From NCBI GenBank assembly GCA_025823825.1, contig GCA_025823825.1_4720.1: a stretch of 64,000 nucleotides of DNA; one strand, written 5' to 3'. This document shows positions 4,438 to 53,664 of this stretch, one piece after another; the stretch's first letter is position 1, and every line of letters begins with the position of its first letter. The DNA comes from a phage. A program made the translations under genes and the position numbers. The notes under the pieces are model-generated. The model worked only from the letters and a program-made list of their open reading frames with translations. It did no database searches and was not told where the DNA came from.

Positions 4438-5148
4438 TCACCCCCTCAGAATCGCTTCTGTTTCGCTGATCGTATCCGCAGGATAAACCAAACTACTATC
4501 GATTGCGTTATTCACGTAACCACCCATTAAGTTGGTGATGGTGTTTGTACCACTATCGATAATGTTTCGTAATCCGATATCGATGGCTTTTAACGTGCTG
4601 CGTTCCTCATCCGAAAGCAAACGCCATGCTCGACGACGATCGTTGGGGTCACGTGTGGTGATAGAAGCCAGAACAGAATAGATGCTGCTATCCGCATTCA
4701 GTTTAACGCCTGCCAATTTCGCTGACGTGTAGAGCAGCTGATATTTTTCTTTCTCAGTGTACCACCATGGCACTTTACCGAGCGTATAGATCTCGTTATA
4801 CATCAGCCATGGGAAAGAGTTTCGCATCACGACATCGGTTGACACCAACACCGTGTCACCGGGAAGAAACACAAACTCATAAAACGGCTGGCCATCCATG
4901 GTAATTTCACGGATGTCAGACGGGTCGATATGGAGCTGGGTCAATGCGTGGCTGACACCATACTGACCATCGGGAAGAATAATCGGGCAGCACGCACAAA
5001 CCCGGTTCTCACTCCCGATGATAGATAAACCCAATCCCTCGTAACGGACGGGTGTCAGAATCGAACACCCGCCACGAGTAACAACAGATTTATCTTCTTG
5101 TATGTCCCAGTCCGCAAGCACCGCAGCACCGTTGCGGACAAGCGCCAT
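4438..5148 (-). CDS. hypothetical protein (236 aa)
   Basis: Long ORF, immediately adjacent to neighbours (operon-like spacing). Confidence 0.5.
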   Translation of the reverse strand: MALVRNGAAVLADWDIQEDKSVVTRGGCSILTPVRYEGLGLSIIGSENRVCACCPIILPDGQYGVSHALTQLHIDPSDIREITMDGQPFYEFVFLPGDTVLVSTDVVMRNSFPWLMYNEIYTLGKVPWWYTEKEKYQLLYTSAKLAGVKLNADSSIYSVLASITTRDPNDRRRAWRLLSDEERSTLKAIDIGLRNIIDSGTNTITNLMGGYVNNAIDSSLVYPADTISETEAILRG

Positions 5149-6672
5149 TTACACCTCGCTAATCTGGATAACGTAAAGCTGCTGGGCCACGTAATCGGTG
5201 GTCAGATGCATCGTTGCGATGGTCGCTGCTTCGAACACCGTGAGTTCAGGACGTTCACGCATAATCAAATCGATCTCATCGATGAGACGGTTAACGCCTT
5301 GAGCGTCTTCGTGATGCATGGTTTTCACGTACAGCGTACGGAAATACTGCTGGAAGTTAGCTACGTCGGTATCGGTAAGGGCAGCAACTTCACCACGTAC
5401 GATTTCCATAACCTTCTTACGGGTATCTTCATCAAGGTCCACTGTAATCAGATCGGCGAACACACCCTGCAGCGCCAGCGCGTATGCACGTAAGCGGTTT
5501 GCGGCTTGCTGGCTGGCTTTCATGTTGATGTAGTTACGGTAATGCTGCATGAAGCCTGCACCGTTAGCCAGCAGCTCATCTTTACTGATGAGTTCACGCT
5601 CTAACAGGACAGCTGCGGTTAGTGCTTCCGGTGAACCGCCTTCTTGCAGATAACCCATGTAGACATCTGCGTTAACGAAAATCGTCATCGTTGACGCATC
5701 TTCAGCACGTTGAATCTGTGAAGCTGACGGTGCAGAAAGAATCAGTTCACCACGCTCCATACGCAGAATACGATCACGACCGACGCGTGCCATCCCGTTG
5801 ATCGCCGCAGCGCGAGCTTGTTGCATTTTAGCGCGGTAGTTTTCAAGCATCATGTCGTTGCCGTCCTGGATATCTTCCAGCAGGTTAACGGCCCACATAT
5901 AGCAGAGGAACGCGGGAGTTGCCGCAGCGCGGGAACCGTGGAACGCAACGTTATCGCTATCCGGATATGTAATCAGATAAGCGGTGTTGTTCGAAGAAGG
6001 AGCGGAGCCACGGAAGAAATAGTTGTAGATGTCTTCCAGTGCCTGATCGCTCATCCCTTCCGTTGCTTGCTGTACAAAACGATCCAGGTTTTCATTACCG
6101 GTATACAGCAACGTACGCAGCTTGTCACCAGTGATAAACGCAAGCTTTTCGGTTGGGGTGAAATCGTTATTAATCGAAATCAAGCCGTTGAGATCATAAT
6201 CGCTAACTAATGCCTGATACTCTTCGGAGTTATAAAACTCAGGATAGTAACTCAGACTTACTGTCGGGATCAGTTTCGGTGCCAGGATGATCGAATCGAT
6301 ACGTTTTTCCAGTTCCGGGTACAGCGCACGGCATTTCGGCAGGATGGTATTACGCGCCAACTCTTTGGCATACACCACTTTTTCCACCACGTCTTGAACT
6401 GCAGTCTGTAAAACTTCATCGTGGATATAAACCTCGCGTTCGCTGGCAGGTGCTACAGCGCCATCTTCGGTTTCATCAAGTGTTTCAGCAACAACCATAC
6501 GTTCAGCACTAAGCTGTACCAACGCATCCGCGTCTTCCGGTGGCTGGTTCCAATGCATGGTTTCACAAACCGCGGCTAACGGGGTACCTGGAATCGCAGC
6601 GACGATTTGGTTACGTTTGATAAACCCTTCGACAATAGGCTCAACAGCATAAACGGTTTTATTGGTGATCAT
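5149..6672 (-). CDS. hypothetical protein (507 aa)
   Basis: Long uninterrupted ORF; no catalytic motif recognised. Confidence 0.6.
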   Translation of the reverse strand: MITNKTVYAVEPIVEGFIKRNQIVAAIPGTPLAAVCETMHWNQPPEDADALVQLSAERMVVAETLDETEDGAVAPASEREVYIHDEVLQTAVQDVVEKVVYAKELARNTILPKCRALYPELEKRIDSIILAPKLIPTVSLSYYPEFYNSEEYQALVSDYDLNGLISINNDFTPTEKLAFITGDKLRTLLYTGNENLDRFVQQATEGMSDQALEDIYNYFFRGSAPSSNNTAYLITYPDSDNVAFHGSRAAATPAFLCYMWAVNLLEDIQDGNDMMLENYRAKMQQARAAAINGMARVGRDRILRMERGELILSAPSASQIQRAEDASTMTIFVNADVYMGYLQEGGSPEALTAAVLLERELISKDELLANGAGFMQHYRNYINMKASQQAANRLRAYALALQGVFADLITVDLDEDTRKKVMEIVRGEVAALTDTDVANFQQYFRTLYVKTMHHEDAQGVNRLIDEIDLIMRERPELTVFEAATIATMHLTTDYVAQQLYVIQISEV

Positions 6673-6905
6673 TACTGCGCTCCCTCCAACGCATTACTAC
6701 CTACGGGTTCTTTGGTTTCCAGACGGCTGTTTAAGCGCGCAGCAACCGCATCTTCCAATCCCAACGGCATAACCTTTTTGTTCACGTCAGGATCGGCGGC
6801 ATCATTACCAACGGTTTGCCGTACGACCTCAGCAACCAACGTTACCGCGTTCGTCAGCGCAACAAAGCTCGCTGCCCGAGCCGTGTTAAGTTGTTCTTGG
6901 TTCAT
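6672..6905 (-). CDS. small hypothetical protein (77 aa)
   Basis: Short ORF start/stop-coupled to the 507-aa ORF; weak support. Confidence 0.35.
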   Translation of the reverse strand: MNQEQLNTARAASFVALTNAVTLVAEVVRQTVGNDAADPDVNKKVMPLGLEDAVAARLNSRLETKEPVGSNALEGAQ

Positions 6906-7007: not shown

Positions 7008-8135
7008 TTATTTGGCGTCGTTAAAATAAATATCAACAGCTCGTTCCGTTGCGTAGAGGAGACCAAGATTCACAGTCCCAACCACTTCCGGTGAACCGAT
7101 GATACGGTTAGCGATACTGGTGCCACTGAAGATAGCATCAAGGGTGTGCCCGTCTTCGGTTTTGTTCACACCATGACCCACGGAAGAGACAACGGATTTC
7201 GCTTGTGCTGCGAAGGTACCTTTATCACCCATCCCCGCACCAAGGTCGTAACGCATGAAAATACGGATAGCGATCTGGTTCTCGCCTAACGGATTACCGT
7301 CTATTCTCACGTTACTGTTATTGATACGCCCCGTTGTTGCTTCGTTGAGTTTCAGTTCCTTAACGCGTTTAGCTCGCGCTTTATCCGCTTCACCGACGAG
7401 CGCCGCCATGGTTTCACTCATATCCTCAATCTGAGCACGGTACAATACATCGATCTGTACAACTTCACCATGAACGTCAGCACGTGGGTTATACTGACTC
7501 ATACGACGTAATGCTTCAACGGCTTCCTGGCTCTCATCGCTCAGATCAGTTGCAATCGGTTCTTCCAGTGTTGCAAGAATCGTTCGAGGTTCAACATGAT
7601 CACCGATTTTCACGAGACCACGAATGTTGAGATGAGCGTCAACAATGAGTGTACGACTTTTAATCGATGGTGTTACGAGGCGATCAGCAAGATTGTCGAA
7701 GATATACGAGCTATCCTCGTGCGTCTCTGGAATATCCAGAATACCAACAAGAGACAGAACACCTGCACGCCAAACAACCTGACCTGGGTTCCACCAATCG
7801 CGTTTAAAATAAAGACGATGGAAAACCACCACATCCTGATCCTTAACGCGATCCCCGACTTTATAATCGGTAATGAGATCGTGAGGATAATACTTACCTG
7901 GTCCTTTCCCGATTATCGTACCGAGCTGGAAAACCTCTTCCCCTAACTCTGGATCGTCGTATTGTATCGTAAGCGCAGTTTTGGTGACCTTCTTAACAAC
8001 ACCATCGCCTTGGGCAGCTGCTGCGAAGAGTTTACCAACACGATGCGCGATGACAGTCTCGCCACCAGTACGCCACGGTTGTACATCGTAACCTTCAGCA
8101 GCAATCATGCGGTTGTGCTGTATACCTATAAATAC
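7008..8135 (-). CDS. multisubunit RNA polymerase beta-like subunit, 3' exon
   Basis: Translation aligns by eye to bacterial beta: VFIGIQHNRMIAAEGYDV ~ VVTDEIHYLSAIEEGNYV; ETHEDSSYIF ~ GYNFEDSILV; IRIFMRYDLGAGMGDKGTFAAQAKSVVSSV ~ [30 protein letters not shown]. Frame is open upstream of the annotated TTG back to a stop at about 8153-8155; joins to the exon ending at 9833. Confidence 0.75.
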   Translation of the reverse strand, partial: VFIGIQHNRMIAAEGYDVQPWRTGGETVIAHRVGKLFAAAAQGDGVVKKVTKTALTIQYDDPELGEEVFQLGTIIGKGPGKYYPHDLITDYKVGDRVKDQDVVVFHRLYFKRDWWNPGQVVWRAGVLSLVGILDIPETHEDSSYIFDNLADRLVTPSIKSRTLIVDAHLNIRGLVKIGDHVEPRTILATLEEPIATDLSDESQEAVEALRRMSQYNPRADVHGEVVQIDVLYRAQIEDMSETMAALVGEADKARAKRVKELKLNEATTGRINNSNVRIDGNPLGENQIAIRIFMRYDLGAGMGDKGTFAAQAKSVVSSVGHGVNKTEDGHTLDAIFSGTSIANRIIGSPEVVGTVNLGLLYATERAVDIYFNDAK

Positions 8136-8481
8136 CAATCTCTTGGGCGAATTTAGTTCTTATTCAACATAATCATACTATTACCAGAATAAGACTGAGA
8201 TTAGATTGTTCAGATAAGGTCGTTAATCTTATCCCGGAGGCGACGATAGGCACATCACCTCCCGCTTACGTTCTCACGCAAGAGCAGACTATATCACATC
8301 TCGTCTTAGGCTTGTTTTCACAAGTCAAACGGTGCTTCTTCAGCACCTCAACGAGAGTTCACTTCTTCCCAGCGCATCCAGCGCCATTCTCTTATCCAAG
8401 GAGAATGCCTCACTCGAGGGGTACCGGGGGATGAATCCCTTAGTCGTTGAACCGTCACCCTAGAACGTTTCACAACGATCC

Positions 8482-9693
8482 TTAGGCGATTGGCTGCGGA
8501 TTACCCTTAGCCTGCGGACCACGAACTTTTAACGTGGTCAACTCTTCATTTTTAAAGCCCGCATCACGAGTTAATCGTCTCGCTTCTTGCACGTCTAACG
8601 TTTCCGTTTCCGCTTTGGCTGAAGGCAGCATTGGGCGTCCCCGCAATTCAATGAATCTCGTCCATACGTCACCGTATAAACGGACCCGCTCTTTGTAAAC
8701 AGAATAGTAAATATATCGCTTTCCATCAGGGAATTTCTTCATTCCTTCCGACTTCAAACGGTAATCTAACAATGTAGGACTGATCCCCATTTCTTTTGCG
8801 CATTCTACACCGGAGAGATACAACTTCGGTACGTCGTCTTCAGGAATAACCACAACGGCACGTTTGTTGTTTGTTTTCTCCAGTTCGATAATGCTATCAT
8901 CCACTTCACGCCATGGTGTTTGATCGGTTGCCCATTTCGCTTGGAGGAAACCATTAACGACCGGCTGATCTGGATCGTTAACATATTCCGATGCGGTGGG
9001 AAGCTTAACACCGATATGGTTGGCGAAATCCGTTAACGAATTAAAAATCTGGATTTCTTTCGTTAACGTGGATCTGGTAATAACACCTTTACTGGAGTCT
9101 TCAGATAGCGTAGCAATCTCGTATTCCGTCGGGATGTACCATGGGTCATCGCCGCGATATTTACGGTATTGCAACCTTTCGGTAAACGGACGTTCTTCAC
9201 CACGGTAAACACGATGATGAATGAAATCAATATTCACACCAAGTTTACGTGCTGCTTCCGTCATAGACGCATAATCCGTAACTTCTCCGGTATCGATATT
9301 GCGAACCTGAATGGGTTTGCCGTAAGCTTCGATGGCTTTTCGACGCATGGTCATGATGCGTGCGTGTTCGTTGTTCTCTTTTGCCGTCACCCATTCGAGA
9401 TTATCATTCTCCGTGTTACCGTCTGGATCAAGGTAATTATTAAGTTTATTACCGTCCTTATGGTTCACGTGGAGTTCGTATGCATCATCGATGTTACGAT
9501 ATGTCAACATCAATAAACGATGCATCGAACGATATGTGACAGTACCGTCGTGGCTACGAAACGCGTATCGCCAATACCCACCCATTATAACTGGCTTATA
9601 AATAAAACCAGTTTCTTTGTTACGCAATGTCCCATCAATGGCAATTTCAAGAAACGGGAATTCCTCTACTGTTTTGTACGTCAATTTTCTCAT
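8482..9693 (-). CDS. intron-encoded HNH homing endonuclease (403 aa)
   Basis: HNH_3-type motif HVNHKDGNKLNN…NLEWVTAKENNEHA; NUMOD-like DNA-binding motif TDYASMTEAARKLGVN; lies wholly inside the intron with its own promoter-like motif at 9739-9747. Confidence 0.8.
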   Translation of the reverse strand: MRKLTYKTVEEFPFLEIAIDGTLRNKETGFIYKPVIMGGYWRYAFRSHDGTVTYRSMHRLLMLTYRNIDDAYELHVNHKDGNKLNNYLDPDGNTENDNLEWVTAKENNEHARIMTMRRKAIEAYGKPIQVRNIDTGEVTDYASMTEAARKLGVNIDFIHHRVYRGEERPFTERLQYRKYRGDDPWYIPTEYEIATLSEDSSKGVITRSTLTKEIQIFNSLTDFANHIGVKLPTASEYVNDPDQPVVNGFLQAKWATDQTPWREVDDSIIELEKTNNKRAVVVIPEDDVPKLYLSGVECAKEMGISPTLLDYRLKSEGMKKFPDGKRYIYYSVYKERVRLYGDVWTRFIELRGRPMLPSAKAETETLDVQEARRLTRDAGFKNEELTTLKVRGPQAKGNPQPIA

Positions 9694-9738
9694 TGGCTAC
9701 ATTCCTTAAATCCTGCAGTGAACTTATCCTGCACTTTC

Positions 9739-9747
9739 GTAATATAG
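9739..9747 (-). promoter_or_regulatory. promoter-like motif CTATATTAC (minus strand) inside intron 1, upstream of the HNH ORF
   Basis: Same 9-mer and orientation as four other sites (1722, 28099, 41221, 53755), each upstream of a minus-strand gene start. Confidence 0.45.
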
Positions 9748-9832
9748 CCTTAATTCTGTTTACATTGAAGCCTTAATCATCTCTATCAGCAGCAGGTACT
9801 GCAAGTGCTGATGTACTCATTATTGACGAGCT

Positions 9833-12800
9833 ACCGTCCGTTTTCTCGTCGTAGGGTTTCGTTTCACCGTATACAGACACAATGTTTGCGTTAGGTGCGA
9901 GGTAAGCAGAAATACCTACATCCCCACTATCCTTCGTACCTTCGGATACAACACCAATGTCCGACTTGTCGTATTCACGATCGCGTGCGCGTCGAAGCGA
10001 TGTCTTTGAACGACCCCCGATACCGGTCATCGTTGCTTCTTCACCCTGCTTGATATCCAACATCGGGTTGGTTTCATCGATCACGATGGACGCGCTGTCG
10101 TCGAGAATTTGGTTCCAGACGCTTACCGGACTGATTGAGATTTTCTGACGATTTCCTTGACTGCTGTTCTCATTCTGGCGAATAGCGCCAACCAGGTCCT
10201 TATACACCAATTCAGCGAACTTATCGTACGTTTTAAAACGTTGGTAGTTCACATCGTTCGTGTTAGGTGCCCAGTCATCCAGAAGCAGTTCAACAGCACG
10301 CAGTAGCAACATGGCGAAATCGGTAGGTTCTCCCATGTTCTGTAATAGCGTACGGCTTACCGGATCAACGAAAAGACGCTCCATGAGTTCAAGTTCGCGT
10401 AAATGGCGAACCTTAAGTCCAGCACCATCGACAACGTTAAAATAGATATCTCGATTGTCGAAAGCACCGCGAGCGTAACCGATGTAGTTACGGTACTCGT
10501 TAAACCCACCCAACAACAACGTCGTCATGCGATCGTCTTTACTGAAGATCAAACTTTCGTCGTCAAAGCTCACCGCGAATTCATCTGGCGCTAACCCCAT
10601 ACGAGAACCACGAGGTACCGTACGATAGTTTGCTTTAAGATGTTCTAATAACGGGGTAAGTCCACCCAGATAACTTAGAACAACGCCAACCGGAATACGT
10701 ACACCCATGAATTCAAGATCGGCAGCTTCGATCGGCATCTTAGCCGCATTGATACCGAAGAAATCAGGGAACGTCCCTACAGGTGTTGGTGTTTGTCCTG
10801 ACTGACAGATATAGAGCTGATTGCGTTCATCGATCGCTAGGAATTCACCCGATGTGTTACGTGCGAACGTCAGGAGTCCTTCGGCTAACTGTTCGTTGAA
10901 CCGATCTTCCCCAATGAACTCCGGTAGCGTTTTTATATCGAGACGTATATCCCAATCAGCAAATTGGATTTGGGTATAATTGCGCGCAAGCACTGCAAAG
11001 TAGTACGGGACTTTGACAGCCGGATCAAAGACGTTACCACGTTTTAACGTGGTTAAGGGTGAGGACTTATCGTAATACATCGCTGTAAGTTGGCGTGTTA
11101 ACCAACGACCGGCGTTATTAACGACACGCTCTGAACGTTTAACAAACACCTTACCATAGGCGGTACTCAACGCAACTTCGGATGATGATACCTTTCTAAT
11201 AGGTTTATCAACACGTTGTTTACGCATCCGGTACTTGATGCCGTTAACGACATAAATGCCATCCTTACGAACCTTCGGCAACATCACCGGGAACGTGGTT
11301 GGGACACCGCCTACAGGAGCCAGTTTAATCGTGATGACTTGATAATCCCCCATCACGTCAACAACATCTTCAACTTTATATCCCGTAACAGGGTAACCAG
11401 CTTGCTGTACCGCAACAACGGCAGCTGCGATGTCCTTTTGCATTACATGTTCAACGTAATGTTTATCCCACACCGCAAGCGTCGATTTACATAGGCTCTT
11501 GTCGACGATAACGTCCGCTTCCGGCATAACCTTTGCGGGAGCTAATTTTGCGGCTTTTGGTTTAACTTCAACATACTCGGCAAGCGTTAATCCAGAACCG
11601 TCAGGTGCTTCGATTTCATGAATAGCGTCGGCATTACGCATCGCTGCTTTATATTGGACACCACTTAACTGACCCGCATCCGCCAGATCGCTCGCGCGCA
11701 CCAACACCGCATCCGATAACGACTGAATATATTCACCGTGCGTTTTTGGTAACGTTGCCGCGTCAAAGACATCAACCTTTTCTTCTTCGGTATCGTCGGT
11801 AACGACTTCGAAGAGATCGTCGGTAATGTCCTGATCTTCATCGGGCTGGAAATCCGGCTGTACTTCTACCCCGGGTACTTCACGGACATCTTCGAACGAG
11901 CGTTCTACAATGGCGTTCCACGCATCAGCGTCATCGTCTTCATCCGAACCACCGACCAACTCCGCTTCTAACTCGTCGGGATCAAGAACGGTAGCGAGAT
12001 CTTCACCGTTAGGAAGCATGACATCGCGATCATCGTACTCCGCATCCGGGCTGTCCGCAAGAATATCTCGCTCTTGACGAAGAACCTGTTCCTCTTCTTG
12101 TTTCTGTTCTTCTTCATTCGCGCTCTGCGACCACAGACGTGTTACCGCCATCATCCAACGACGCTGGAAGGTTTCAAGTGTCGTTTTATCGAGTTCTTCC
12201 CCTTCCTTTACAAGTCCGGTACGCCATTCTTCCAGCAGGCCAAGATTCAGCGTAAAGAAGTACACACCGTCTGTAAATACAACGTTAAGCTTATCCAGCG
12301 TGGCTCTGTCTAACGAAGCCATTGTGCTGTTCTCACGATCGGTTCCCAACCAGCGGAAGAAGTCAAAGAACGACAGCTCCTCCGGCGTAGCGAAATTCAT
12401 GAGGTTGTTACGGGTCGGTGCCTGTTGCGTGGTACGCATCAACGAAATCTTCGGCAATGTTGACGGTATACGGAACAACAGAAAGTGTTGACGATCGTTT
12501 TGTTGTGCGATTTCGTTGGCTTTCGACCAAATCGTTTTACGTACGTTGAACCATTCATCATACCAACGGGTGAGCGTTGGACGATAGATGTACATGTGGT
12601 TAAGATGTGCGTAGTTAGCAACGATCTGAGCGTTGATGTTTTTCTCCACCGCGCTTAGATCGGTAACCAAACGAAAACGACGATGCGATGCACGATAATC
12701 CAATTTCGCTCGTGGGAGTTGGAATCGTTGATCGCGTCGAGGCGCACCCTGTTTGGTTGCGAGATCATCAGCAAACGAAATCCATAGTTGAGCACTTTCT

Positions 12801-12982
12801 TTACTCAGCATGTATTCGTTTTCTGGAGGACCTATCAATGATGGATCCGTTGCGGTGTAATGATAGACAGCATAACGCGGCAGCTGCAATAGCTGCACTA
12901 AACGTAATCTCGGCGACAATAGCTCTTGGTAGCGTCGGACACCAAACTGTCGGTAGTAATCAAGGTATTTAAGTTTTGCCAT
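9833..12982 (-). CDS. multisubunit RNA polymerase beta-like subunit, 5' exon
   Basis: ATG at 12982 with GGAG ribosome-binding site. C-terminal region matches beta motifs: SEGTKDSGDVGISAYLAPNANIVSVYGETKPYDEKTDG ~ [36 protein letters not shown]. The last 20 codons of the annotated 1069-aa ORF (SSSIMSTSALAVPAADRDD) are intron read-through. Confidence 0.75.
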
Positions 12983-12985
12983 GGG

Positions 12986-13165
12986 TTAGGCTCCACGAGG
13001 TCCCGTTAAGTTGCGTAATAGGAACGCAACCGTATCGTAACCAATATCGATGTTGAATTTATTTTTACCACTTACCCAGAAAGCTCGCTTCTTGTGCGAG
13101 TTGGTAATTTCGTCAATGGCTTCCATGGAATAAAGAACGTTAACCGAGACCGTATCACCATCGAA
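12986..13165 (-). CDS. multisubunit RNA polymerase beta'-like N-terminal subunit, 3' exon (57 codons + stop)
   Basis: In-frame translation FDGDTVSVNVLYSMEAIDE… matches beta' catalytic region [22 protein letters not shown]; ends at TAA 12986-12988, three nt before the beta-like gene ATG. Missed by the ORF track because it has no start codon. Confidence 0.7.
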   Translation of the reverse strand, partial: FDGDTVSVNVLYSMEAIDEITNSHKKRAFWVSGKNKFNIDIGYDTVAFLLRNLTGPRGA

Positions 13166-15220
13166 CCTTGTCTTCGCCTCAGTTCGCTACGCTGAGACCG
13201 CCTGCATGGATACGTACATCACAGGCTGCTTGCACTTTCATGCAAGAGGAGACTATATCAAACCGTCAGCTTCACCTTCTCGATCGTATCGAGAATGCGG
13301 CGCTGAAGAATACTTCAGCAGCACCTGTTACGGTAACCTACACTTCGAAGACGCTTGTCCTCTACAGGGTGGTAAATCCCTTAGTCGTTGAACCTGCGTT
13401 GTTTCACATTTTTGCAAACAAGAATGCCGTATTGCTACGCAACAACCAGGCTGCTGATTGCCCATTGTTTCGCACCTTAGCACCGCTTACGCGGCTTTTC
13501 TTTCAGCCTAAGCCTCTTACGGAGGTAGTGCATCTCAACTTTTGTTTCTGCCTTTCGGCACCTCATGGGTCGTTGAGCTTTAGGGGTTCCCAGCAATTCG
13601 TAGGTTTTTCAAGCACTCCCTTTCGGGAATACCGGACCTTTACCCTTTAGCTAATTTATTTAAGTATCTGAAATCCCACTTATCTTTACGTCGTTTATCG
13701 CACTTAATGTCAGGATGATTAACACGATGTCTGATGGTCGTCGCTGACAGCTGACTGAGATTCTCAGCAGATCGTGCGCCAAGAACAACGAGTTTTGTGT
13801 CGTCTGGACGCGTAACTTCTACTGCCCGATAATGCTTACGTAACACATCACGCCAATATTCACGACGTTCTGGTTCAGCATACTCAAGCATGTAACCGTT
13901 AACATCTACTAAACCGTAGCTTTCGTTTAATCGAGAGGTAGCGGCTGGTTTACTAATACCGATTGCTTTAGCCGCATCGACCACGGTTTTATACGGGGTC
14001 TCATTACCGTCTCTATCTACAACCATAATGAAATCTGGACGTGAATCGAGTAGCTGCTGTCTGCGTTCGACGGCTTGTTGATGAAGTACCATGTTAACGT
14101 GTTCGAACCCGTAACCTTCTGGGCCACGCCATCCTGGATTGTTGTTCGCTCGATAAAGTATCGTCGATGATTTCACTCCAGTCTGACGCGATGCCTCGTT
14201 TGCGCTATGAACAACCGTGGTAGAGCCGTCAGGATGATATATCCGTATCTGGTTCATTATACCGGAACCAATGAAGTTACCGTCGGCTGATTTAATGTCC
14301 GGCCATGGTTGCGGGTCATCTTTGAATTTAACCACCCAGCGGTTGTTAAACAGCTTAACTTTTCGAACATGTTTGCCTAATGTCGTATCCGTAACACCTG
14401 CGATCACTGATGCTTGTGTGATGCTCAGGTACTCAGTAACGGTATCGTTCCAAGTATCCCAAAGCAGAACCGGTTTATTGTCGTCGCGTAAACCATGTTC
14501 GATAGCATGTAGGACATTACGACTTCTGGTCGCCCATTCCAGGTTATCGAGAGAATAGTTCCACTTATCAGCATCAAGATGATTAACGTCCAGACTATCG
14601 ACATTTGCTGGATATTCCCGCCACGCCAACATCAAGCAACGGTGTAATCCCTTATTACCAGCCTTCTGGCGACAATCATGTTTCAAGCAGACAGTAACGT
14701 AACGGTTCGTTTCGAAACGTGGATGATAGATACTCCCGTCCTTTCTGTCTCTGATTTCACCTGCTTCGTTTATTACGTATCTCGTCATTCCTGGAATAAC
14801 ACGATAACCGGGGTACTTAGCGATCTCATAAGCAGGCTCGAAACGATAGGACAAATTATCAACATCCCAATTAGATTCGTTACCGTCAACAAACATCGCT
14901 TTGACGTACTTCTGTGTTTCAATATCAACCAGGATGTTTTTGTGTGCGATACAAATCAATGCTGGGATATTGAATTCGCGACCGACTAAATTAACTGTGT
15001 CGCCGTTTCTCGGTATCTCGACGTGGGTATCGCGATACCGTAAGTTTCCATAGCCGTCTATTTCAATCCAGCTCAGAAACGGAATAGATATAAATTCTTT
15101 TTCAGATACACGCCATTTAAACATATAAACCTCTGTATAACCTTACTATCACACTAAGAGGTTTATCTGTAAATTCTTACAAAACGGCGTAAATTACTAA
15201 AAAGGTCGATCACCGCCTAA
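13166..15220 (-). mobile_element. group I intron (about 2.05 kb) inside the beta'-like RNAP gene, carrying an HNH homing endonuclease ORF
   Basis: On the minus strand: Q-like AATCAGCAGC (about 13456-13465), R-like GUUCAACGACUAAGGGAUU (about 13377-13396), S-like GAUAUAGUCUCC (about 13250-13261), then the 3' splice site after a G. 5' exon ends in U (…gcc ggt). Spliced junction gives …YLAG|FDGD…, rebuilding a YNADFDGD-like catalytic motif. Confidence 0.75.
13640..15124 (-). CDS. intron-encoded HNH homing endonuclease (494 aa)
   Basis: HNH_3-type motif VNHLDADKWNYSLDNLEWATRSRNVLHA; NUMOD-like motif SITQASVIAGVTDTTLGKHV; own ribosome-binding site (agagg) before ATG at 15124. Confidence 0.8.
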   Translation of the reverse strand: MFKWRVSEKEFISIPFLSWIEIDGYGNLRYRDTHVEIPRNGDTVNLVGREFNIPALICIAHKNILVDIETQKYVKAMFVDGNESNWDVDNLSYRFEPAYEIAKYPGYRVIPGMTRYVINEAGEIRDRKDGSIYHPRFETNRYVTVCLKHDCRQKAGNKGLHRCLMLAWREYPANVDSLDVNHLDADKWNYSLDNLEWATRSRNVLHAIEHGLRDDNKPVLLWDTWNDTVTEYLSITQASVIAGVTDTTLGKHVRKVKLFNNRWVVKFKDDPQPWPDIKSADGNFIGSGIMNQIRIYHPDGSTTVVHSANEASRQTGVKSSTILYRANNNPGWRGPEGYGFEHVNMVLHQQAVERRQQLLDSRPDFIMVVDRDGNETPYKTVVDAAKAIGISKPAATSRLNESYGLVDVNGYMLEYAEPERREYWRDVLRKHYRAVEVTRPDDTKLVVLGARSAENLSQLSATTIRHRVNHPDIKCDKRRKDKWDFRYLNKLAKG

Positions 15221-16717
15221 ACCGGCGAGGTATGGGGCTGGGACAATAGTCGTTTCTACGAATGAAGCATTAGGTAACCAGTCGGGGTATTCCCATGCGA
15301 TAAATCGTTCATCCGTTATTGGTTCCCAGTTACTATCCAGTTCGGTTTTCGGTTTTGCGGCGACGGTTGTACGTGCGTAACAGGTTAACGGGATAACGGA
15401 TTGCATACCTGATACCGGATAACGTGTTACCATTGCAGCCAGGTTATTCCAGTACTTATATCCGGCAATATAGATAAGCTCGGTGTAAGTAATGGGGTGA
15501 ACATCCGCGCCAGGTTTATTCAACATCTCCGGGGGTAATTCACTCATGCCACGGAATAACCGAAACGAATCGTTGTTCACATAGACGAGGCAAAGATATC
15601 GTCCATTGACCATGATAGGCTCGTTACGCACGCCAGGATCGCTTAAGGTGTTCAGTAAACGTTCTATTCCGTCCCATGTTGTAAAGTCATCGATGGTGTC
15701 TGGATCAAGCGTGACGCGCTCACGTTCCATCGTTTCGGTATCAATAAGTTCAACTTCTGTAACATCACGGACAAATATTTCCTGCAAAATACCGGTACGT
15801 AACGCATGTTGCGTTACTGGGAGAGCGGCTTTACTCATCTGGTATAACCCTAACTGAACCGCGGTACAGGAAGGCTGGTTAGGCGACCCTAATACCTCCG
15901 TTGTGGGGTTAATTGCCGAAATAACGTTACGGGTTGAGTTCCAAACACGACGTGAGCCGAACTTACCTTGGAAGATCCCTTTCTTACCTTGGAACATATC
16001 CAACAACAAAGCGTAGATATCGTTAAATGTTCTCTGTAAGCTCCAGCGCTGGCCGTCGTAAACGGGATCAGAATAATCTTTTAATCCATCAGGGACGGTG
16101 TTAGAAATTGCAAGGAAACGACGATACAACTCTGTGATTTCTTGCTCGCTTTCATACCCGCCTTCTTTTACTTCTATTTCACGTAAGCCTGCAGGTAAAA
16201 CCAGTAAGTGACGGGTCATCGCTTTGAACATGTTCTCTTCGACGACTTTAATACGTAGCTCTCGTTGAGCTGAACCCGTTGAAACGAACTTAATATCAGC
16301 GACGTGTTGTGCGAAGAACCCGTATCCTGTTTGTCCTGTTAATGCATCAGACGCAACGAAGTCGCGTTGTTCTGGATCCCAACGCGCGTACGCCTTTCCT
16401 GACATGATATCACCATAGAGGTGTTTTAGTCGAATGAGGCGATCGTAAATGACAGGATGCAGGATTTCAACTTTGCATTCAATCACCGCAAATCGACGGT
16501 CTCGGTCTTCACTGCCCGCACTACCAAAGATGGTGTAAGAATAGAAACCGTCATCATGGAAATTACCGGTGCTTGGGTCACGAATGCTCATGCTCGTGAT
16601 CTTGGGGAGAAAACGTAACTGCTGTTTATCGAGGTGTAAAATACTAATGTTAAACGGCTCTCTGACTTTAGCCATGGAGACACTCCTCTTTACCACCACC
16701 GGCTGCGGCGGTATCAT
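15221..16717 (-). CDS. multisubunit RNA polymerase beta'-like N-terminal subunit, 5' exon
   Basis: beta' homology: GKKGIFQGKFGSRRVWNSTRNVISAINP ~ [35 protein letters not shown] ~ LPPDLRP; YRRFLAISN ~ YRRVINRNN. Likely true start is the ATG of MAKVREPF (about 16674) preceded by AGAGGAG. The annotated stop at 15197 lies in the intron. Confidence 0.75.
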
Positions 16718-16827
16718 CTGAACACACGAGAGACGTAATGGGTGATGGCGTCACCCATCGCTTCCTTGCTTGAGGCGAGGAAGTTATTAGGTTACGTACC
16801 TGCCTGATTTTATCAGGTGGGCGATGT

Positions 16828-19800
16828 GTGAAGTTACGCTTCAACATTATCAATGCCGAAGGTAAACTTCGTGCATCACGTTCCAACGTAACATGGGAAC
16901 GTATCGAACTGGAGGTATACATGGTAGATAAAACCCGTGTTGAGGGTGATGATAATTGGGATAACTGGGATGAAGACTTCTCCCTGGATCTCGATTTTAA
17001 CGAACCCAAAGACGATCGTAAACCGATAACACGCTTTGCGATAGGAGCGGTTAAAGGTGCTGCTGAGGATCTTACTTCCTACGAAAGAATGAAGGAGATC
17101 GCCAGAAACGCATTGCCTAAGGGCTACAGCGACGGTATGGATCTTATCGATTCCGCCGTCGGATCCACGAAGGAACTATACAATGAAGCCGTTCGTGACG
17201 TTCTTCCTAAGGTCCAAAGCTCAAAACGGTTAGCTGCACAACTAACCAAGAAATACCGTGCGAGCATGCCCGATTTCTCGAAGAAAATTCTTGAGCAATG
17301 GGAGCGAGAAGCCAAGGAAGAAGACGAACGTAAACAAGCTGAAGAAACCCTTCGTCAACGCATGGCGAGCGCGGGGGACGATGAGATCGCCCGCAAGGTT
17401 GCCGAGGCATTAGGCGAATCAGCAAACCAAAGCGCGGATCAGTTCGCTGAACAGCAAGCGAAAGAGAGTATCCGTGACGATATCGCTGACAAACGGTACG
17501 CTGTAACCAACAAACAAATGAGTGCGATGCAAGAAGGCGTCGCCAAGATGGTTGGTTTCAACAATGAATTCGCTGCGCGCTACATGCGTAAAAGCCTGGA
17601 ACTGAAATATCGTTCCTTAGCGATTCAGCGTGCAAGTTTTGATCAGCATAAAAAGTTAGCCGAAGTCTATATCGGTTTATTACAAAACATCCAGAAGAAT
17701 ACGGCTTTACCTGATGCAGCTAAAGCGAAGATGTCGGAAGAATTCCGTCGTAGTGCATACCAACGTTTCTTTGGTAATGCGTTAGATGCGATGGGTTCTT
17801 TCGAGAACCGTTTCTTTGCCGATGTTAAGAAGAACCTCGCCACCAACGCATTAGGTGCTTTAAAAGGCGTCGTGTCTGGCGCAAACGATGCGTTATACGG
17901 TTTAAACGAAGCACGTGACTCGATGTCCATGATGGACGGGATGGGGTCAGAAGGCGATATTAAGGAAATGCAAGGAAGGATGTTGGGTCAGTTCATTGGC
18001 TCAACTGTCGCGCCGTGGATGGCTAATAAAGGCAGGATGGCGTTACGCGATTTAGCAAAACGTCACCCCAATGCTAAATTCGCTAGCGCGTTAAAAGCCG
18101 TGGATCAAGGTGGTGAGGCTGCCGCTTACACGACGCGTAATCTCGGTAAACTGCTCCAGGAAGATATTCGTAAAAACGAATTCAATCTTAACGATCCGTT
18201 TTACAAGCAGTTGTTGCGTGGTGCAGGGCGTTGGGCGTTCAACATGGACAGCGGACGTAACTTCCGCGTGATGAACGACACCGCTGAAACACTGGCGGAG
18301 CAAACGTCTTTCGACGGTTTAACTTACCGCAGTATCAATGAAGTTATTCCTGGTTTTCTTGCACGCATTCTGAAAAGCAGTGAAGGTATCCGCACCGGAA
18401 ACAGCGATCCTGACTACGAGGTCTATGACGGCATCAGCGGACAATTCGTGTCTCAGCGCACGCGTGAGCAAAGCGTCAACGACACGCTGTTTAACAAACG
18501 TACATTTGGTTATTACGCCAGCCGTTTCAATGAGGTTATCTCGGTCATCGATCCCGATAAACAATTATCGGATAACGCAAGAAAAGGATTAGCAAAACAG
18601 CTAGCTCGTGACAGCGACGCAAACATTGCATTCGACCCGGCTCGTTTTACGGATGAAAGCAACTTCGATCGTAGTATCGACCGCGACGCTATTAAGGAAC
18701 TTTCTAATTACTTCCGTAACCGTTACGGTATCGACTACGTACCCGATGAAAAAGGACAACACCATCAGGTCATTGGAAACCGCGGGCAATATTACACGGA
18801 ACGTAACCGAGCTGACCTTCGCTACGGTAATTTGAAATCGTTACAACCGGATATCCAGCGTAACCTTAACCTACTGAAACGTACTGGTGACGTCCAATAT
18901 CTGGAACGTATCGGTATTGTGACGAGAAATAGCGACGGAAGCTACTCAGTTAATCACGATCGGTATTTCTCTGAAATCGATCAATACATCGACCGACCGG
19001 AGTACGCTGACCGCGGCGATGTTAATACGCGATTAACCGCTCAGGAAACAAGAGCTCTGGCGTTGGGTTATCGTGACGCAAAACCATCAGTTGATGACGT
19101 CCAAAATGCGGGTCTGCCGAACATCGAACGTAAGGCTGCTGGAACAGTAACCGTTGATGAAAACATCGGCTACGATAAATGGTGGAACGACACAGGTGTT
19201 ATCACCACATCGCTTGAAGAACAGAATCGAGCATGGCAAGAGCTTTATCTCGAAGCGTTGTCTGAAGCATCCGAACAACGTGTTGAAATGCTTGCGTTGC
19301 TGAAAGCCATTTCTGAGAAAGACTGGTCTAATAATGTTTCACTGGATGGCGAAGACGTACCTGAAGGCGCAGCGCCTATTTCATTTATTGATCGCGCCAA
19401 ACAAAAACTCGGCGGACGCAACCTCTTTAAAGGCGGCCGTAATCTCCTCTGGAAAGGAATTAAAAATACCGCACGATTGGGTGTTAAAGGTGCGCGCTGG
19501 GGAGCAGAACGTACATTAGGTAGTTTGGTAAATTCCGGTCGACGTATTATCAATTTCAACCGCTTCGTGTTCGGTGCGTTATCCAAAGTCGATCAGGTTC
19601 CGTTTGACATTTACGTTAAAGGGGAATCCCAACCACGCATATTGGCTGCCAAACTTCGTCAGGGGTTATACTTCGACGAGGCGACAGGAAAAGCCGTCAA
19701 ACGGATGAAGGATATCAAAGGTCCACTCGTTGATGCAGATGGAAACATCGTAATCAGCAACGAGGATATCGAGAAAGGGTTGGTCACTCGCGCTGGTCGT

Positions 19801-22800
19801 GCCTTTGAGAATTCAGGACTTAAGGCGTGGGCACGTGAAGGTCTTAATGGAATAACGACGGTATTAAGTCTGCCACGGATGTTAAAACGCGGCGCGGTTG
19901 AGATCTACAAACAGCTTGACAGAACACCCGACGTTTACGTCAAGGGAGAATCAACGCCTCGTCTATTGTCCATGGTGTTGGCGGCAGGTGGGTATTTCCG
20001 TCGGTCGGACGGACAAGTCATCAAAAATCTTGAAGACATCGATGGTGATGTTGTTGATGCACAAGGTAACGTCGTACTTACGCTTGCCGACATGCAGAAA
20101 GGACTTGTCGATAAATACGGTAAAGCGATTCGTCGCTTAAAAGAAAAGCTCATCAACTTCGGTGTAAAAGCTTTTACGTTACCGTTAACCTTACTACGCA
20201 AGACAAAGGACATCCTTAAAGCCCTTCCAGGTAAAACCGTTAACGGTCTACGGCGGATGGGATTAAATTTCCAATCACCTGACGCATTACTGGTGGGAAC
20301 AACGTCGAGTATGGTAGATCGTCTCGATGCGATTTATAAGCTCCTCGACCAGCGTATGCCGGGAGGTGACAAGGATTACCGCGATTGGAATGGCGATGGT
20401 GTTCGAGAAGGATCGTTGGAAGACCTGAAACGTAAGCGTGAAGCCAAGGAAAACGGTAAGGATGACACCGGCAAAGATTCCAATAAAGGGGAAGAAAAGG
20501 AGAAGAAACGAGGATTACTCGGAAGCCTTTTCGATATGCTCGGCGATACCGCATTAGGTAAACGCCTCATGGCGAGTCCGCTTGGAAAAATTCTAGGTGG
20601 TCTTGGGGCGGTGTTAAGCGGCGGTGCATCGTTAACCGGGTTGTTGGGCAAAGGTCTCATTAGAGGAACCGGCGCGCTGGTCAAGGGAGGACTAAGTGCG
20701 GCAGGATGGTTAGGGCGTGGTGCGTTAATGGCGGGTGGAGCTGCATTGAACGCCGTTGGTGGGTTATCGGGATTAGGTGCATTCCTCATCTCACCTGTTG
20801 GGCTTGCTATCGCTGGCGGTGCGTTGGCTGCTTATGCTGGATGGAAGATCTATCAGCATTTCGCCGAGAAGCCTGACCCGATGCAGAAGCTCCGTCTTAT
20901 TGCATACGGTGCAAAAGGGGACGATAAAGACTTCAATAAGAAGCTGCTTGCGACAGAAACATACCTCACCGACCATGTGGTTATGACCGGGGATACCATC
21001 GGATTCGATCCGAAAGCCGATTCTGAAAAGATTCTCGAAATCTGGGAATTGTCTCTGGAAGATTCCGACCGAATGAACGAATGGAAACGCTGGTATCTGC
21101 ATCGTTTTATTCCTGTTTTCGCTCGTGCATACAAACTCTGGAAAGAGCATATGCCGGACGAGAAGAAATACATGGAAATGGATAAATATCCGAACGGTGA
21201 GAACAAAGTGAAATGGTCGGAAGCGTTTATCTGGCCTTCCGATAGTCCTGATGGTCCGTATTACGTCGAAGCTAACCCGTTGGGTTCTTCTGGTGCGACG
21301 CGTTATATTGCTGGTCAAGACGTCAAAACCTTGATGCTGAAACAACTCGAAGCCATCAAGAAAGAGTACCAGAATCAGATTAAGCAATACACTCATGATG
21401 AGGCTATTGCTGATTGGTCACGGATGTCTGACACACAACGTAAATCCGTTGCGCCTAACGCATTACGTGGTCAGAAAGCGTCATTACGTTTTAACGATAA
21501 ACGTTACAACAGCGCTGGTGCTAAAGGACGACAGAAACTGGATGCAACCGCGGTTATTGAAAGCGTAGACCGCCGTGGTAGGAAATGGGTTGCCGGTGGA
21601 TACATCGATGAACTCACCAGTCTTCGTGTTCGTGCGTACGGTATTAAGGTTCCGTTGTTAAGTCAGATAAAAGTGCTGATGGAACTTGAAGACGCTGTAG
21701 AACCTGGCGTTGTCGCTGAAGGTAAAGGTGTTAAATACGGTGGCGGTCTTGTCGCGCTCTACAAGAAATTCGCGACGAAGTTCGGAAGAGACGTTAACAG
21801 CAAGCATGATCAGGATATCTGGTTTGCTTGGATGAACAACCGTTTCCTGCCCGTCTTTTTAACCTATTACCAACAAGTTAGCGACATGGGCGGTCAAGGA
21901 CTTCTGTCCGACGTGGTACAGAACCTGAAAGACAGCCAACGCTGGGAAATCGGTGAAGCACTTGTCGCAACGCAATACCGTGATGAGAAAGGTACACTGC
22001 AGCCTGTATGGTCCTGGAATAGTTGTGGTTTCTCCGGTACTGAAGCTAACACCACCAGCAGTTCAACAAAGAGCCAACTCGATCTGTTAAAAGAATATGC
22101 GGATAAAGAGAAGGTTCGTGAGAAGAACGCGGAAGCATCGCAAGAGGATACCGATAAATTATCGAAGATCCAAGAGCTGATGATGAAGCAGGCTGGGTAC
22201 GAGAAGAAAGACGGTGTCTGGCAGAAGAAATCTCGCATTACCGGCGGGATGAGTAACTCCGAAGCGAATTACAACCCCAATAGGAATAAGGTCGGTGAAA
22301 GCAGCTTTACGGCTTCGGCTACTTCCAATGCGGGATTAGGGTCAACCGGCGATCTTACCGGATTGCCTAACATGGGCTTACAGAAACCTGCAATGGGACC
22401 AGGTCCTGAAGCTGGACGTCGTGCGCTTGTTAAATCCGCTGTAAAACGCGGCATTACCGATCCGATGGAAATGGCGATGTTCCTTGCGAACATCGAACAT
22501 GAATCGGGGAACTACACTCACGTACGTGAGGGGAACTATAAGACACCAGAGCATCTTAAACAGGTCTTCCCTTACAAATTCCGTGATGTGCAGGATGCCG
22601 CACAGACGATCAGCATGGGGCCGGAAGCGGTATTCGAACGTGTGTATGGTAATCGTAAAGATCTCGGGAACACACAGAAAGGGGACGGGGCGAAGTATTT
22701 AGGACGTGGTTTCATTCAGGTTACCGGTAAAGCTAACTACGCTCGTCTGTCTAAGACCTTGAATAAGGATCTTGTCAGCGATCCGACATACCTGGAAACG

Positions 22801-30167: not shown

Positions 30168-30842
30168 TTAGCCCTCATCAAGGTTATTCTGGAGATGCAT
30201 CGCGGTGAGGATAACGCCAACCGCCGAAACCGATTTTGCCTTGCTGTCTTCAGGGAGCTGCTCCAAGCTTACGGTACCTGTTTCTAACAGCATGCGGTTC
30301 ATCGCGTTGAACTTCTTATCGTCACCACCACGAGCCTGCATCAGCTCTCGGTTCACGTTCGGCATCGACCGTCCTAACGTCGCTTGCATTTCCGGCTGGC
30401 TCCAAGTGGAACCCTTACTTTCACCCGTCGGCTGATTGGTGAGCTGGTCCTTGGTGTTGTTGTTTTTCGGAATCGAAATTTTAGCACTCAACGTTTCGGC
30501 TTGTCGGCGGTTTGGAATCAGGTACAATCTGGTTGGGCGGTCACGAAGCACCAGTTGTCCTGTTTTCTGGTCGGTGAGGTAAATACGCTGGAAGAAAGGG
30601 AAACCGTATTTCTTACCGACTTCCAACGCACGTTTTATCGTCACCTCGTTTTTGTTCATGTTGGGTACCCAGATGGGTAGAATCTCTTTCTTATCCCGAC
30701 ATAAACGCATATAGGCATCAAACGTCTCATCATCGATTTCAGCAAAACGTTTTTTGTAAATAGCGTAAGTCGGGCTCGATTCACCCACCAGGTCTTTGAT
30801 ATACCCAAGAATGAATTTTTCTGCTGCAGCGCGGTTGGACAT
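30168..30842 (-). CDS. hypothetical protein (224 aa)
   Basis: ORF in operon-like array. Confidence 0.5.
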   Translation of the reverse strand: MSNRAAAEKFILGYIKDLVGESSPTYAIYKKRFAEIDDETFDAYMRLCRDKKEILPIWVPNMNKNEVTIKRALEVGKKYGFPFFQRIYLTDQKTGQLVLRDRPTRLYLIPNRRQAETLSAKISIPKNNNTKDQLTNQPTGESKGSTWSQPEMQATLGRSMPNVNRELMQARGGDDKKFNAMNRMLLETGTVSLEQLPEDSKAKSVSAVGVILTAMHLQNNLDEG

Positions 30843-38657: not shown

Positions 38658-38688
38658 CCTCCTCCTTCCCTGACGGGTTGGAGGAGGG
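38658..38688. terminator. terminator-like hairpin of the CCTCC/GGAGG family
   Basis: CCCTCCTCC-ttccctgacgggtt-GGAGGAGGG; same family as the hairpins at 25795, 42811, 54461 and 56286. Confidence 0.5.
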
Positions 38689-38700
38689 TTATGCCGTCAA

Positions 38701-38755
38701 GCAAAAAAAAAAAAAAATGATAGTCACAGGCCCTCCAATGAAGGAGAGCCGTGAC
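38701..38755 (-). terminator. intrinsic terminator for the minus-strand gene ending at 38763 (hairpin plus U15 tract)
   Basis: On the minus strand, an imperfect hairpin (plus 38722-38755) is followed by a 15-nt T run (plus A15 at 38701-38715). Confidence 0.55.
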
Positions 38756-44727: not shown

Positions 44728-44760
44728 TTTCTGTTTCCTTCTTGGGTTTTGTACATGTTG

Positions 44761-52939: not shown

Positions 52940-53664
52940 TGTACGATCCGGCTCCGGCTTACCCGCATCATGATGGATTCGTCATCAAGCCCTGGTTGCA
53001 CAACCGGCAACCAACGTTCGTTAAGCACCTTCGCTTCAACGCGTTTCTTGCGGGGATTGTAACGCACCTCGCTAACCCAAGCGAATCCAAGTGGATGCAC
53101 AACCCGTGGATAATACATGCGGAGCAATTGATGCATCCGATCTGTCACCTCCAGGTTAACATCCACCATGTAAGGTTTCACCATGGTAAGCTTTTTGGTG
53201 TAATACGTTCCAACGGTATGGTTACGCCAGCATGGCAAGGCATGATCCCCTTCTCTCAGTTTGCTATCCGGGTTCATCGGCCAGAACTGCTGTTCACCGC
53301 CCAGCATCGCGTGCCGCCGATCAACGCAACGAACCTGATCGGCGAACAATGGATCCAGGATATCATCCACCGCGCCCTTATTGCGATAACCGTGATGTAC
53401 CACCAACCTGCTTGCGCTCATCCGTTGCGGATGCTGGCTCTTATGCGCATACAGTCCTCCATCACCGCGCGTGTCGTAAAGATAGCCGCATGCGCCACGC
53501 CATATCACCTTGCCTACGGTTCTCTCGTTTTCAAGCAGCATCGTCGGCCCATCAAGCAAATTGGTGAACCACTGCACCTTCACGCATTCCGCTTGGACAT
53601 GCTCAGGTAATGCCTGATACTCTTTTTGGGTGTATAAGGTATCAAAAATGATTTCATCGTTCAT
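52882..53664 (-). CDS. hypothetical protein (260 aa)
   Basis: First gene of the array; promoter-like motif at 53755-53763 about 90 nt upstream. Confidence 0.5.
   Translation of the reverse strand: MNDEIIFDTLYTQKEYQALPEHVQAECVKVQWFTNLLDGPTMLLENERTVGKVIWRGACGYLYDTRGDGGLYAHKSQHPQRMSASRLVVHHGYRNKGAVDDILDPLFADQVRCVDRRHAMLGGEQQFWPMNPDSKLREGDHALPCWRNHTVGTYYTKKLTMVKPYMVDVNLEVTDRMHQLLRMYYPRVVHPLGFAWVSEVRYNPRKKRVEAKVLNERWLPVVQPGLDDESIMMRVSRSRIVQWDATMLRHTQHDTGATLA

Follow-up and report, generated by a model that had tools for sequence, protein, structure and literature searches.

An RNA polymerase (RNAP) module is already known from the phages Goslar, phiKZ and PhiPA3, and the splitting of its genes by introns is likewise known in this phage family. 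Escherichia phage vB_EcoM_Goslar (NC_048170) is a 237-kb member of the Chimalliviridae, and mass spectrometry of its virions found gp205 and gp207 among five subunits of a virion RNAP (vRNAP). Introns have been mentioned in phiKZ gp55 and gp180 (PMC11512511), splicing at gp273/274 of phage 201phi2-1 was seen in a few reads (PMC11512511), and Birkholz et al. (2024, Science; PMC11620839) treat PhiPA3 gp211/209 as a single gene with an interruption. PhiPA3 gp210, the HNH endonuclease at this interruption, nicks the intron-less phiKZ gp178 at a site marked by two aspartates (the DD site), handicapping phiKZ in co-infection (PMC11620839). Here, a stretch of 64,000 nucleotides of phage DNA (GenBank assembly GCA_025823825.1, contig GCA_025823825.1_4720.1; "the window") is compared with these systems. 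Judged by its sequence, the segment from 7008 to 16717 encodes the N-terminal parts of the vRNAP beta' and beta subunits (beta'-N and beta-N). In the favored reading, to which we assign a probability of roughly 0.9, the segment carries the beta'-N/beta-N pair of a Goslar-like vRNAP, each gene holds a group I intron with an HNH/NUMOD endonuclease, and the spliced products form a packaged enzyme.

The coordinates 7008-16717 are exact outer boundaries of open reading frames (ORFs), and the minus strand between them contains five large ORFs in the order 506 amino acids (16717-15197), 494 amino acids with an HNH motif (15124-13640), 1069 amino acids (12982-9773), 403 amino acids, again HNH (9693-8482), and 376 amino acids (8138-7008). 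The beta'-N gene is predicted to comprise exon 1 (15209-16717; 503 codons from the first ATG, ending in PAPYLAGLGGD), group I intron 1 (13166-15208; 2043 nt) with the gene for HNH homing endonuclease 1 (HNH1; 13640-15124, 494 amino acids), and exon 2 (12986-13165; 59 codons plus a stop, running from FDGDTVSVNVLYS to GPRGA). Gene callers applied to relatives start beta'-N at M15, position 16675. The beta-N gene would likewise comprise exon 1 (9776-12982; 1069 codons, ending in VPAADRDD), group I intron 2 (8148-9775; 1628 nt) with the gene for HNH homing endonuclease 2 (HNH2; 8482-9693, 403 amino acids), and exon 2 (7008-8147; 379 codons plus a stop, beginning PKRLVFIGIQ). All of these features lie on the minus strand.

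Family-level comparisons identify the products as RNAP subunits. Beta'-N is matched with an E-value of 2e-179, and beta-N exons 1 and 2 with E-values of 1e-290 and 3e-120, by PHROG families that bear the label "RNA polymerase beta subunit". The match of PHROG 2986 to beta'-N is contiguous across the intron 1 junction, and beta-N exon 1 matches positions 2-1050 of PHROG 3148 and exon 2 its positions 1051-1420, with no break at the junction. Profiles built from 20 diverse homologues of beta'-N and from 18 homologues of beta-N were searched against the PDB. The beta'-N profile matches the N-terminal beta' chain of the phage AR9 non-virion RNAP (7S01_d, E 5.6e-17) as well as some 78 beta' chains from bacteria and plastids (E 1e-8 to 1e-6); the cellular matches span E. 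coli beta' residues 447-514, which include the NADFDGD loop, and about 230-320. In spliced beta'-N, GGDFDGD occupies residues 500-506 of 562, and the product ends about 55 residues past DFDGD. The beta-N profile matches Thermus beta (1IW7_C, E 1.2e-13) over residues 533-696 and 822-880, covering the "DDANR" and "GDK...NPLGVPSR" regions. Its alignment sets "LSPGSDRDDPKRVNF" against "LIPFLEHDDANRALM" and "GDKG...DG..iDaif" against "GDK..GNKG...DGTPVDVILNPLGVPSR", and the product ends just past the NPLGVPSR-equivalent region. Thus, the first-pass annotation of this DNA, made from the letters and an ORF list, was right in describing split beta/beta' fragments of a phiKZ-like RNAP, a beta'-like product that is N-terminal and runs through the catalytic motif, and a beta-like product that ends where it had placed the end.

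The similarity of the predicted proteins to bacterial beta' and beta is real but remote. Single-sequence phmmer searches against the PDB gave a marginal AR9 match for beta'-N (E 5e-4) and none for beta-N or for the C-terminal beta fragment (beta-C) described below. By eye, beta-like motifs in beta-N start at about residue 590 (VNGIKYRMRKQR), and solved beta chains are matched by the profile from near its position 945 of 1419 onward; the first ~590 residues showed no similarity to cellular beta in the profile and family searches of this analysis. A long, very acidic stretch of low complexity (EEEQKQEEEQ...DEDDDADAW...) lies at about residues 285-400.

The interruption of beta'-N falls within the catalytic motif, which is split GGD/FDGD. 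Exon 1 ends in GGC GGT GAT, and an in-frame stop follows four codons on. About 2 kb downstream, just past the ribozyme, an open frame of 59 codons begins with TTC GAT GGT GAT ACG (FDGDTVSVNV...), has no start codon ahead of FDGD, and stops 3 nt before the beta-N ATG. Between the two pieces, at 13721-13229, Rfam RF00028 finds a group I core with 60.8 bits (threshold 50) and an E-value of 6e-13. Related loci were fetched via the exact HNH2 protein, and in two of them (L007 and L010) beta'-N is a contiguous ORF of 548 amino acids that reads YLAGLGGDFDGDTVSV; when aligned to the window, these two loci break off precisely at 15209 and 13165. The predicted spliced beta'-N has the junction peptide AGLGGDFDGDTVSVNVLYSMEAIDEITNSHK (junction-spanning stretch into exon 2, FAWEYPDWLPNASFVETTIVPAPYLAGLGGDFDGDTVSVNVLYSMEAIDEITNSHK) and is 100% identical to the contiguous 548-residue proteins P0040 and P0042, which belong to a cluster of 235 members. 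These break points and this identity together place intron 1 at 15208-13166. About a quarter of the beta'-N homologues in a large protein collection end at this point as well (about 480-510 amino acids, covering 86-88% of the query), and for some phiKZ-like phages the tblastn match runs only to beta'-N residue 503; thus, the intron at the DFDGD site looks widespread in the family.

The second interruption lies directly after the conserved DD of beta-N. At this site Goslar gp207 is a single uninterrupted ORF of 1448 amino acids, in which GACCGTGACGAT is joined directly to GGAAAACGT. Goslar reads DRDD-G-KRLVF where the window, once spliced, reads DRDD/PKRLVF, and DDPKR is the family consensus. 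Since removal of the predicted intron restores this consensus and gives a beta-N of the same length as the intron-less gp207, the boundaries of intron 2 are set at 9775 and 8148. In E-value mode, RF00028 matches intron 2 at 8707-8265 with 49.9 bits and an E-value of 3.3e-11. A standard Rfam scan of the window at the gathering threshold misses this intron.

Both insertions have further features of group I introns. Each upstream exon ends in U and each intron ends in G, removal of the predicted introns restores an uninterrupted conserved reading frame at both sites, and the five ribozyme cores compared (those of both window introns, phiKZ, PhiPA3 and Serratia phage 2050HW) have their conserved blocks in common.

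Several observations weigh against the favored reading. Neither intron yielded a convincing P1 helix, or an internal guide sequence forming the canonical U-G wobble. When the 5' ends of the introns were folded locally, the stretch upstream of the Rfam core was inspected, and an ORF-less intron from a related locus (L008) was folded, only weak or non-canonical candidates emerged, and no helix was conserved between variants. The Rfam model begins 71 nt inside this ORF-less intron, and P1 lies outside the model. Long-read transcriptomics of phiKZ detected no splicing at the equivalent gp179 intron (PMC10914365). The score of intron 2 is 0.1 bit under the curated Rfam threshold of 50. Pfam and NCBIfam give no significant RNAP match, either to the raw ORFs or to the spliced proteins. 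Finally, the assignment of beta-C is weak, being drawn from family labels, the literature and weak fold matches.

The missing P1 helix and the phiKZ transcriptome would fit an arrangement in which the HNH genes are free-standing between separate genes and nothing is spliced, the RNAP pieces being separate polypeptides (beta'-N without DFDGD, and beta-N in two parts) or pseudogenes; the database annotations of Goslar, PhiPA3 and 2050HW do list the pieces as separate coding sequences. This arrangement is nevertheless very unlikely. It would leave a beta'-N exon 2 that cannot start before FDGD, and an enzyme that lacks its catalytic Mg-binding motif. Moreover, complete group I cores sit exactly between the coding pieces, with the U and G at the exon and intron ends noted above, and intron removal reproduces the contiguous proteins of intron-less relatives residue for residue. 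For 201phi2-1 gp273/274 there is splicing or proteomic support (PMC11512511), and the PhiPA3 pieces are handled as a single gene (PMC11620839). Inteins, or artefacts of assembly or frameshifting, are scarcely credible as the cause of the interruptions, since the bare fact of interrupted ORFs is all that speaks for them. Inteins are ruled out because the frame is closed by a stop no more than four codons past the end of each exon 1, which makes protein splicing impossible. An assembly artefact is ruled out by the Rfam intron matches and by the identical HNH2 protein, which is present on at least 23 independently assembled contigs.

The silence of Pfam and NCBIfam is a sensitivity problem, since the PHROG matches and both family profiles do recognize the proteins; these are too divergent for the two libraries. 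The first-pass annotation had called for profile searches with the spliced proteins and had named a lack of significant RNAP domain matches as the result that would tell against it. With Pfam or NCBIfam, this lack is indeed what is seen; with PHROG and the family-level profiles, both proteins match RNAP. Because Pfam and NCBIfam miss these polymerases, automated pipelines will go on calling them hypothetical proteins.

Read as spliced genes, beta'-N and beta-N would be transcribed leftward, starting from the divergent intergenic region of 110 bp at 16718-16827 and ending at a hairpin at 7007-6982. This hairpin, which lies directly after the beta-N stop, is G+C-rich, with 9 pairs (7 of them G-C) and a T-rich tail on the minus strand, and is likely the terminator of the module. 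A scan of the window for sigma-70 promoters gave no more matches than in shuffled sequence. Splicing of intron 1 would join AGLGGD to FDGDTVS, rebuilding the Mg-binding DFDGD motif in a beta'-N of 548-562 amino acids, and splicing of intron 2 would join AADRDD to PKRLVF in a beta-N of 1448 amino acids. These subunits would assemble with beta-C (30168-30842), a fifth subunit (4438-5148), and the C-terminal part of beta' (beta'-C), which is encoded outside the window. The assembled enzyme would then be packaged in the capsid, injected with the DNA, and used to transcribe the early genes. For the window phage, we infer splicing from sequence; virion packaging, early transcription and endonuclease nicking are carried over by analogy from the literature on Goslar, phiKZ and PhiPA3.

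Candidates for two of the other subunits lie in the window. The putative beta-C, a 224-residue protein on the minus strand (30168-30842) outside the segment first delimited, is the homologue of Goslar gp196 and matches PHROG 3233 with an E-value of 2e-65. It contains "TGESKGSTWSQPEMQ", which we take to be the equivalent of the GGQRFGEME stretch of E. coli beta. A narrow-family sequence profile of beta-C found nothing in the PDB. The AlphaFold2 model is of low confidence (mean predicted local distance difference test, pLDDT, 65.7), and the 50 PDB matches listed by Foldseek for this model all come from RNAP, most of them being beta chains of bacteria, with AR9 chain C also among them. Their best E-value is 2.8e-3; these fold matches are supportive, not decisive. 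The candidate fifth subunit (4438-5148, minus strand; PHROG 2926) is 97.7% identical in DNA, over the block, to Goslar gp210, the reported fifth vRNAP subunit of the phiKZ gp176/PhiPA3 gp206 type, an assignment that draws on the Goslar virion mass spectrometry. For beta'-C (Goslar gp78), tblastn against the window gave nothing better than an E-value of 3.6; gp78 lies at 88 kb in Goslar.

On the opposite side of the intergenic region, the plus strand encodes a predicted virion protein of 2252 amino acids (16828-23586; PHROG 3201, E 1e-292; PHROG 181, E 1e-52) with an endolysin/GH19-like domain at residues 1866-2089. Its position is that of phiKZ gp181, PhiPA3 gp213 and Goslar gp204. The locus has the synteny of phiKZ-type vRNAP genes, being divergent from a lysozyme-domain protein of ~2200-2300 amino acids and upstream of the head protease block; Peptidase_S80 genes are present in related loci.

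This neighborhood also bears on which enzyme the subunits belong to. Virion and non-virion enzymes alike are made of split homologues of beta and beta'. Among PDB entries, beta'-N is matched best by the AR9 non-virion enzyme, and no virion enzyme is among the matches; a second beta'-like family, PHROG 2987, matches weakly (E 1.5e-5). If these points were decisive, the genes would encode the non-virion RNAP that acts in middle or late transcription. That is highly improbable, since the match to the gp180-type PHROG 2986 is about 170 orders of magnitude stronger than that to PHROG 2987, the locus is syntenic with phiKZ gp180/gp178 beside gp181, which are annotated as structural head proteins, and the near-identical Goslar gp205 and gp207 have been detected in virions. 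Assignment to the virion enzyme, which the first-pass annotation had offered as a possibility, is strengthened by the same synteny and virion detection, and the divergent lysozyme-domain protein of more than 2200 residues that it had noted is the 2252-residue neighbor. Its statement that the C-terminal parts lie outside the window proved correct for beta'-C and, taking the gp196 homologue as beta-C, wrong for beta-C, and the search for missing fragments that it had proposed, carried out on the window, recovered the putative beta-C and the candidate fifth subunit and did not recover beta'-C. It had also placed the DNA in a phiKZ-like jumbo phage and had held a genome of less than 100 kb to be at odds with this. 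The match to Goslar (94-98% DNA identity in the gp205-gp207 stretch) agrees with that placement, and the objection does not apply, because Goslar-like contigs overall measure 236-248 kb.

Among about 50,000 phage records, Goslar is the only match of the 7008-16717 region by megablast, with 93.7% identity across 81% of the region; the gap in the alignment is a single block at 8138-9789. The entire window is colinear with Goslar from 200 kb to 237 kb and then from 1 to 25 kb, and on this colinearity its source is a Goslar-like member of the nucleus-forming Chimalliviridae. The RNAP module itself mainly serves to identify the window as Goslarvirus. Both endonuclease proteins recur unchanged in assemblies of E. 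coli and Salmonella, where the contigs that encode them reach 241 kb, and Shigella assemblies too contain close variants of HNH1. These occurrences agree with a report that Goslarvirus, as a genus, has grown to 237 genomes recovered from assemblies of bacteria (bioRxiv 10.1101/2025.05.06.652010).

HNH1 is encoded in the 5' part of intron 1, and the 3' end of its gene overlaps the ribozyme core. It matches Pfam HNH_3 (E 1e-7) and PHROG 59, and is 84% identical in amino acids to Goslar gp206 and 32% to phiKZ gp179. Within the gene, the block at 14388-14837 has only 59-68% DNA identity to Goslar gp206, with adjoining blocks at 87-95%, which suggests a mosaic or recombinant endonuclease. HNH2 has its best tblastn match in PhiPA3 gp210 (E 4e-49; 37-39% identity, 39% by BLASTP) and matches Pfam NUMOD1 (E 1.7e-8). 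Its "VNHKDG...NLEWVT" motif aligns with gp210, the HNH motif is intact, and gp210 H82 corresponds to the conserved H78. Both endonucleases most probably nick those alleles of their host genes, present in co-infecting relatives, that lack the intron; nicking would drive intron homing and could handicap a competitor. A stable hairpin (z-scores -2.2 to -5.3) lies ahead of each HNH gene in the vRNAP introns and finishes a few bases short of the start codon; such hairpins are located in the window at 15124-15170 and 9696-9749 and in related loci at 5785-5813 (L006), 6809-6847 (L004), 5896-5936 (L005) and 14487-14531 (L001). These hairpins may occlude the ribosome-binding site, as a hairpin does in the case of T4 I-TevI. 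A further HNH/NUMOD gene, Goslar gp069 (L013, 19280-20470; "similar to phiKZ ORF179"), lies outside the window directly after a DNA polymerase gene fragment and may be another intron-encoded or free-standing endonuclease.

Close relatives, with 92-98% DNA identity in aligned blocks, differ in their introns: the DFDGD site can be empty, hold an ORF-less intron or hold an intron with an endonuclease gene, and the DD site can be occupied or empty. Taken together, these natural alleles would represent every stage of the homing cycle. Among loci with the identical HNH2, all three states of the beta'-N site are found, at about 2000-2700 in each locus. The site is empty in L007 and L010, contains a 539-nt ORF-less intron in L008, L011 and L012, and contains the intron plus HNH gene in L009 and the window; L007 through L012 all carry intron 2. 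At the beta-N site, Goslar and many members of the P0001 cluster lack the intron and many others have it, so that 1448-residue and 1069-residue forms of beta-N fall within the same 90% identity cluster. Upstream of each insertion, roughly 400 nt of exon (9776-10191 and 15209-15584) have 70-92% identity to Goslar, compared with about 97% elsewhere in the genes. The changes inspected beside the splice sites are mostly synonymous, and the downstream flanks are barely affected. This divergence looks like co-conversion tracts or selection for endonuclease resistance, and, together with the low-identity block in HNH1, would be the pattern expected of homing with co-conversion and of endonuclease turnover. 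It is possible, although we put it at somewhat below even odds, that the Goslar-like phages of E. coli, Salmonella and Shigella naturally wage the kind of intron-endonuclease warfare known from PhiPA3 and phiKZ, in which HNH2 would nick Goslar gp207 and so give the intron-bearing phage an advantage in mixed infection. The natural intron-plus, ORF-less and intron-minus alleles offer a tractable system for studying intron homing and interference competition.

Elsewhere in the window, 54 bases (38664-38717) match the linear Goslar record twice, at its last and at its first bases. The window thus runs straight across the ends of the reference, which points to a terminal repeat or to an arbitrary linearization point. 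Three short blocks (59759-60613, 44208-44734 and 53228-53576) align poorly or not at all to Goslar within surroundings that are 89-96% identical. The first lies in the homologue of Goslar gp026, adjoining gp025, a virion structural gene with a Peptidase_S74 domain, and may be related to host range. A tRNA scan of the window found none.

Compared with the known systems, the locus is closest to Goslar, which has the same gene order, an intron 1 with an HNH gene at the same site, the same divergent 2252-residue neighbor and, at the equivalent hairpin site, an annotated terminator. Goslar differs in lacking intron 2. In the Goslar RefSeq record, the gp205 annotation stops at the intron and beta'-N exon 2 (L001, 12348-12593) is unannotated. 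The phiKZ genes gp180-gp179-gp178 lie in the same order beside gp181, and the intron there splits beta'-N at the identical position, LGAD/FDGD: gp180 ends in LGAD and a stop, and is followed by the HNH gene gp179, a 92-bit Rfam group I core, an unannotated exon beginning FDGDTVSFNAV, and gp178. However, beta'-N is only about 38% identical in amino acids to that of phiKZ, the HNH protein is 32% identical over 45% of its length, and phiKZ gp178 has no intron. The gp180 annotation omits exon 2 as well (FDGD and about 55 residues; L006, about 7185-7390); a correction is due for the reference annotations of both Goslar gp205 and phiKZ gp180, from which the exon with the catalytic FDGD is missing.

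The second intron has its counterpart in PhiPA3 gp211/gp210/gp209, where a group I intron with an HNH gene also follows directly on the two conserved Asp residues of vRNAP beta-N. The two share ribozyme core blocks and the catalytic His (gp210 H82). They differ in host (Pseudomonas for PhiPA3, E. coli/Salmonella for the Goslar-like phages), and the window HNH2, known here from its sequence, is about 70 amino acids longer. Judged by gene order, Serratia phage 2050HW and its relatives have a similar element at the corresponding DD position of beta-N. The closest solved structure by sequence is the AR9 non-virion RNAP's N-terminal beta' subunit (PDB 7S00/7S01, chain d), which reads "LSGDYDGD" where the window reads "LGGDFDGD"; unlike the enzyme considered here, it is a non-virion enzyme, comes from a distant Bacillus phage with uracil-containing DNA, and is encoded without an intron at this site. 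Against this background the new points are modest: the lack of the FDGD exon from reference annotations, a second intron of the PhiPA3 gp210 type in the Goslarvirus lineage, and, among close relatives, an intron polymorphism with three states.

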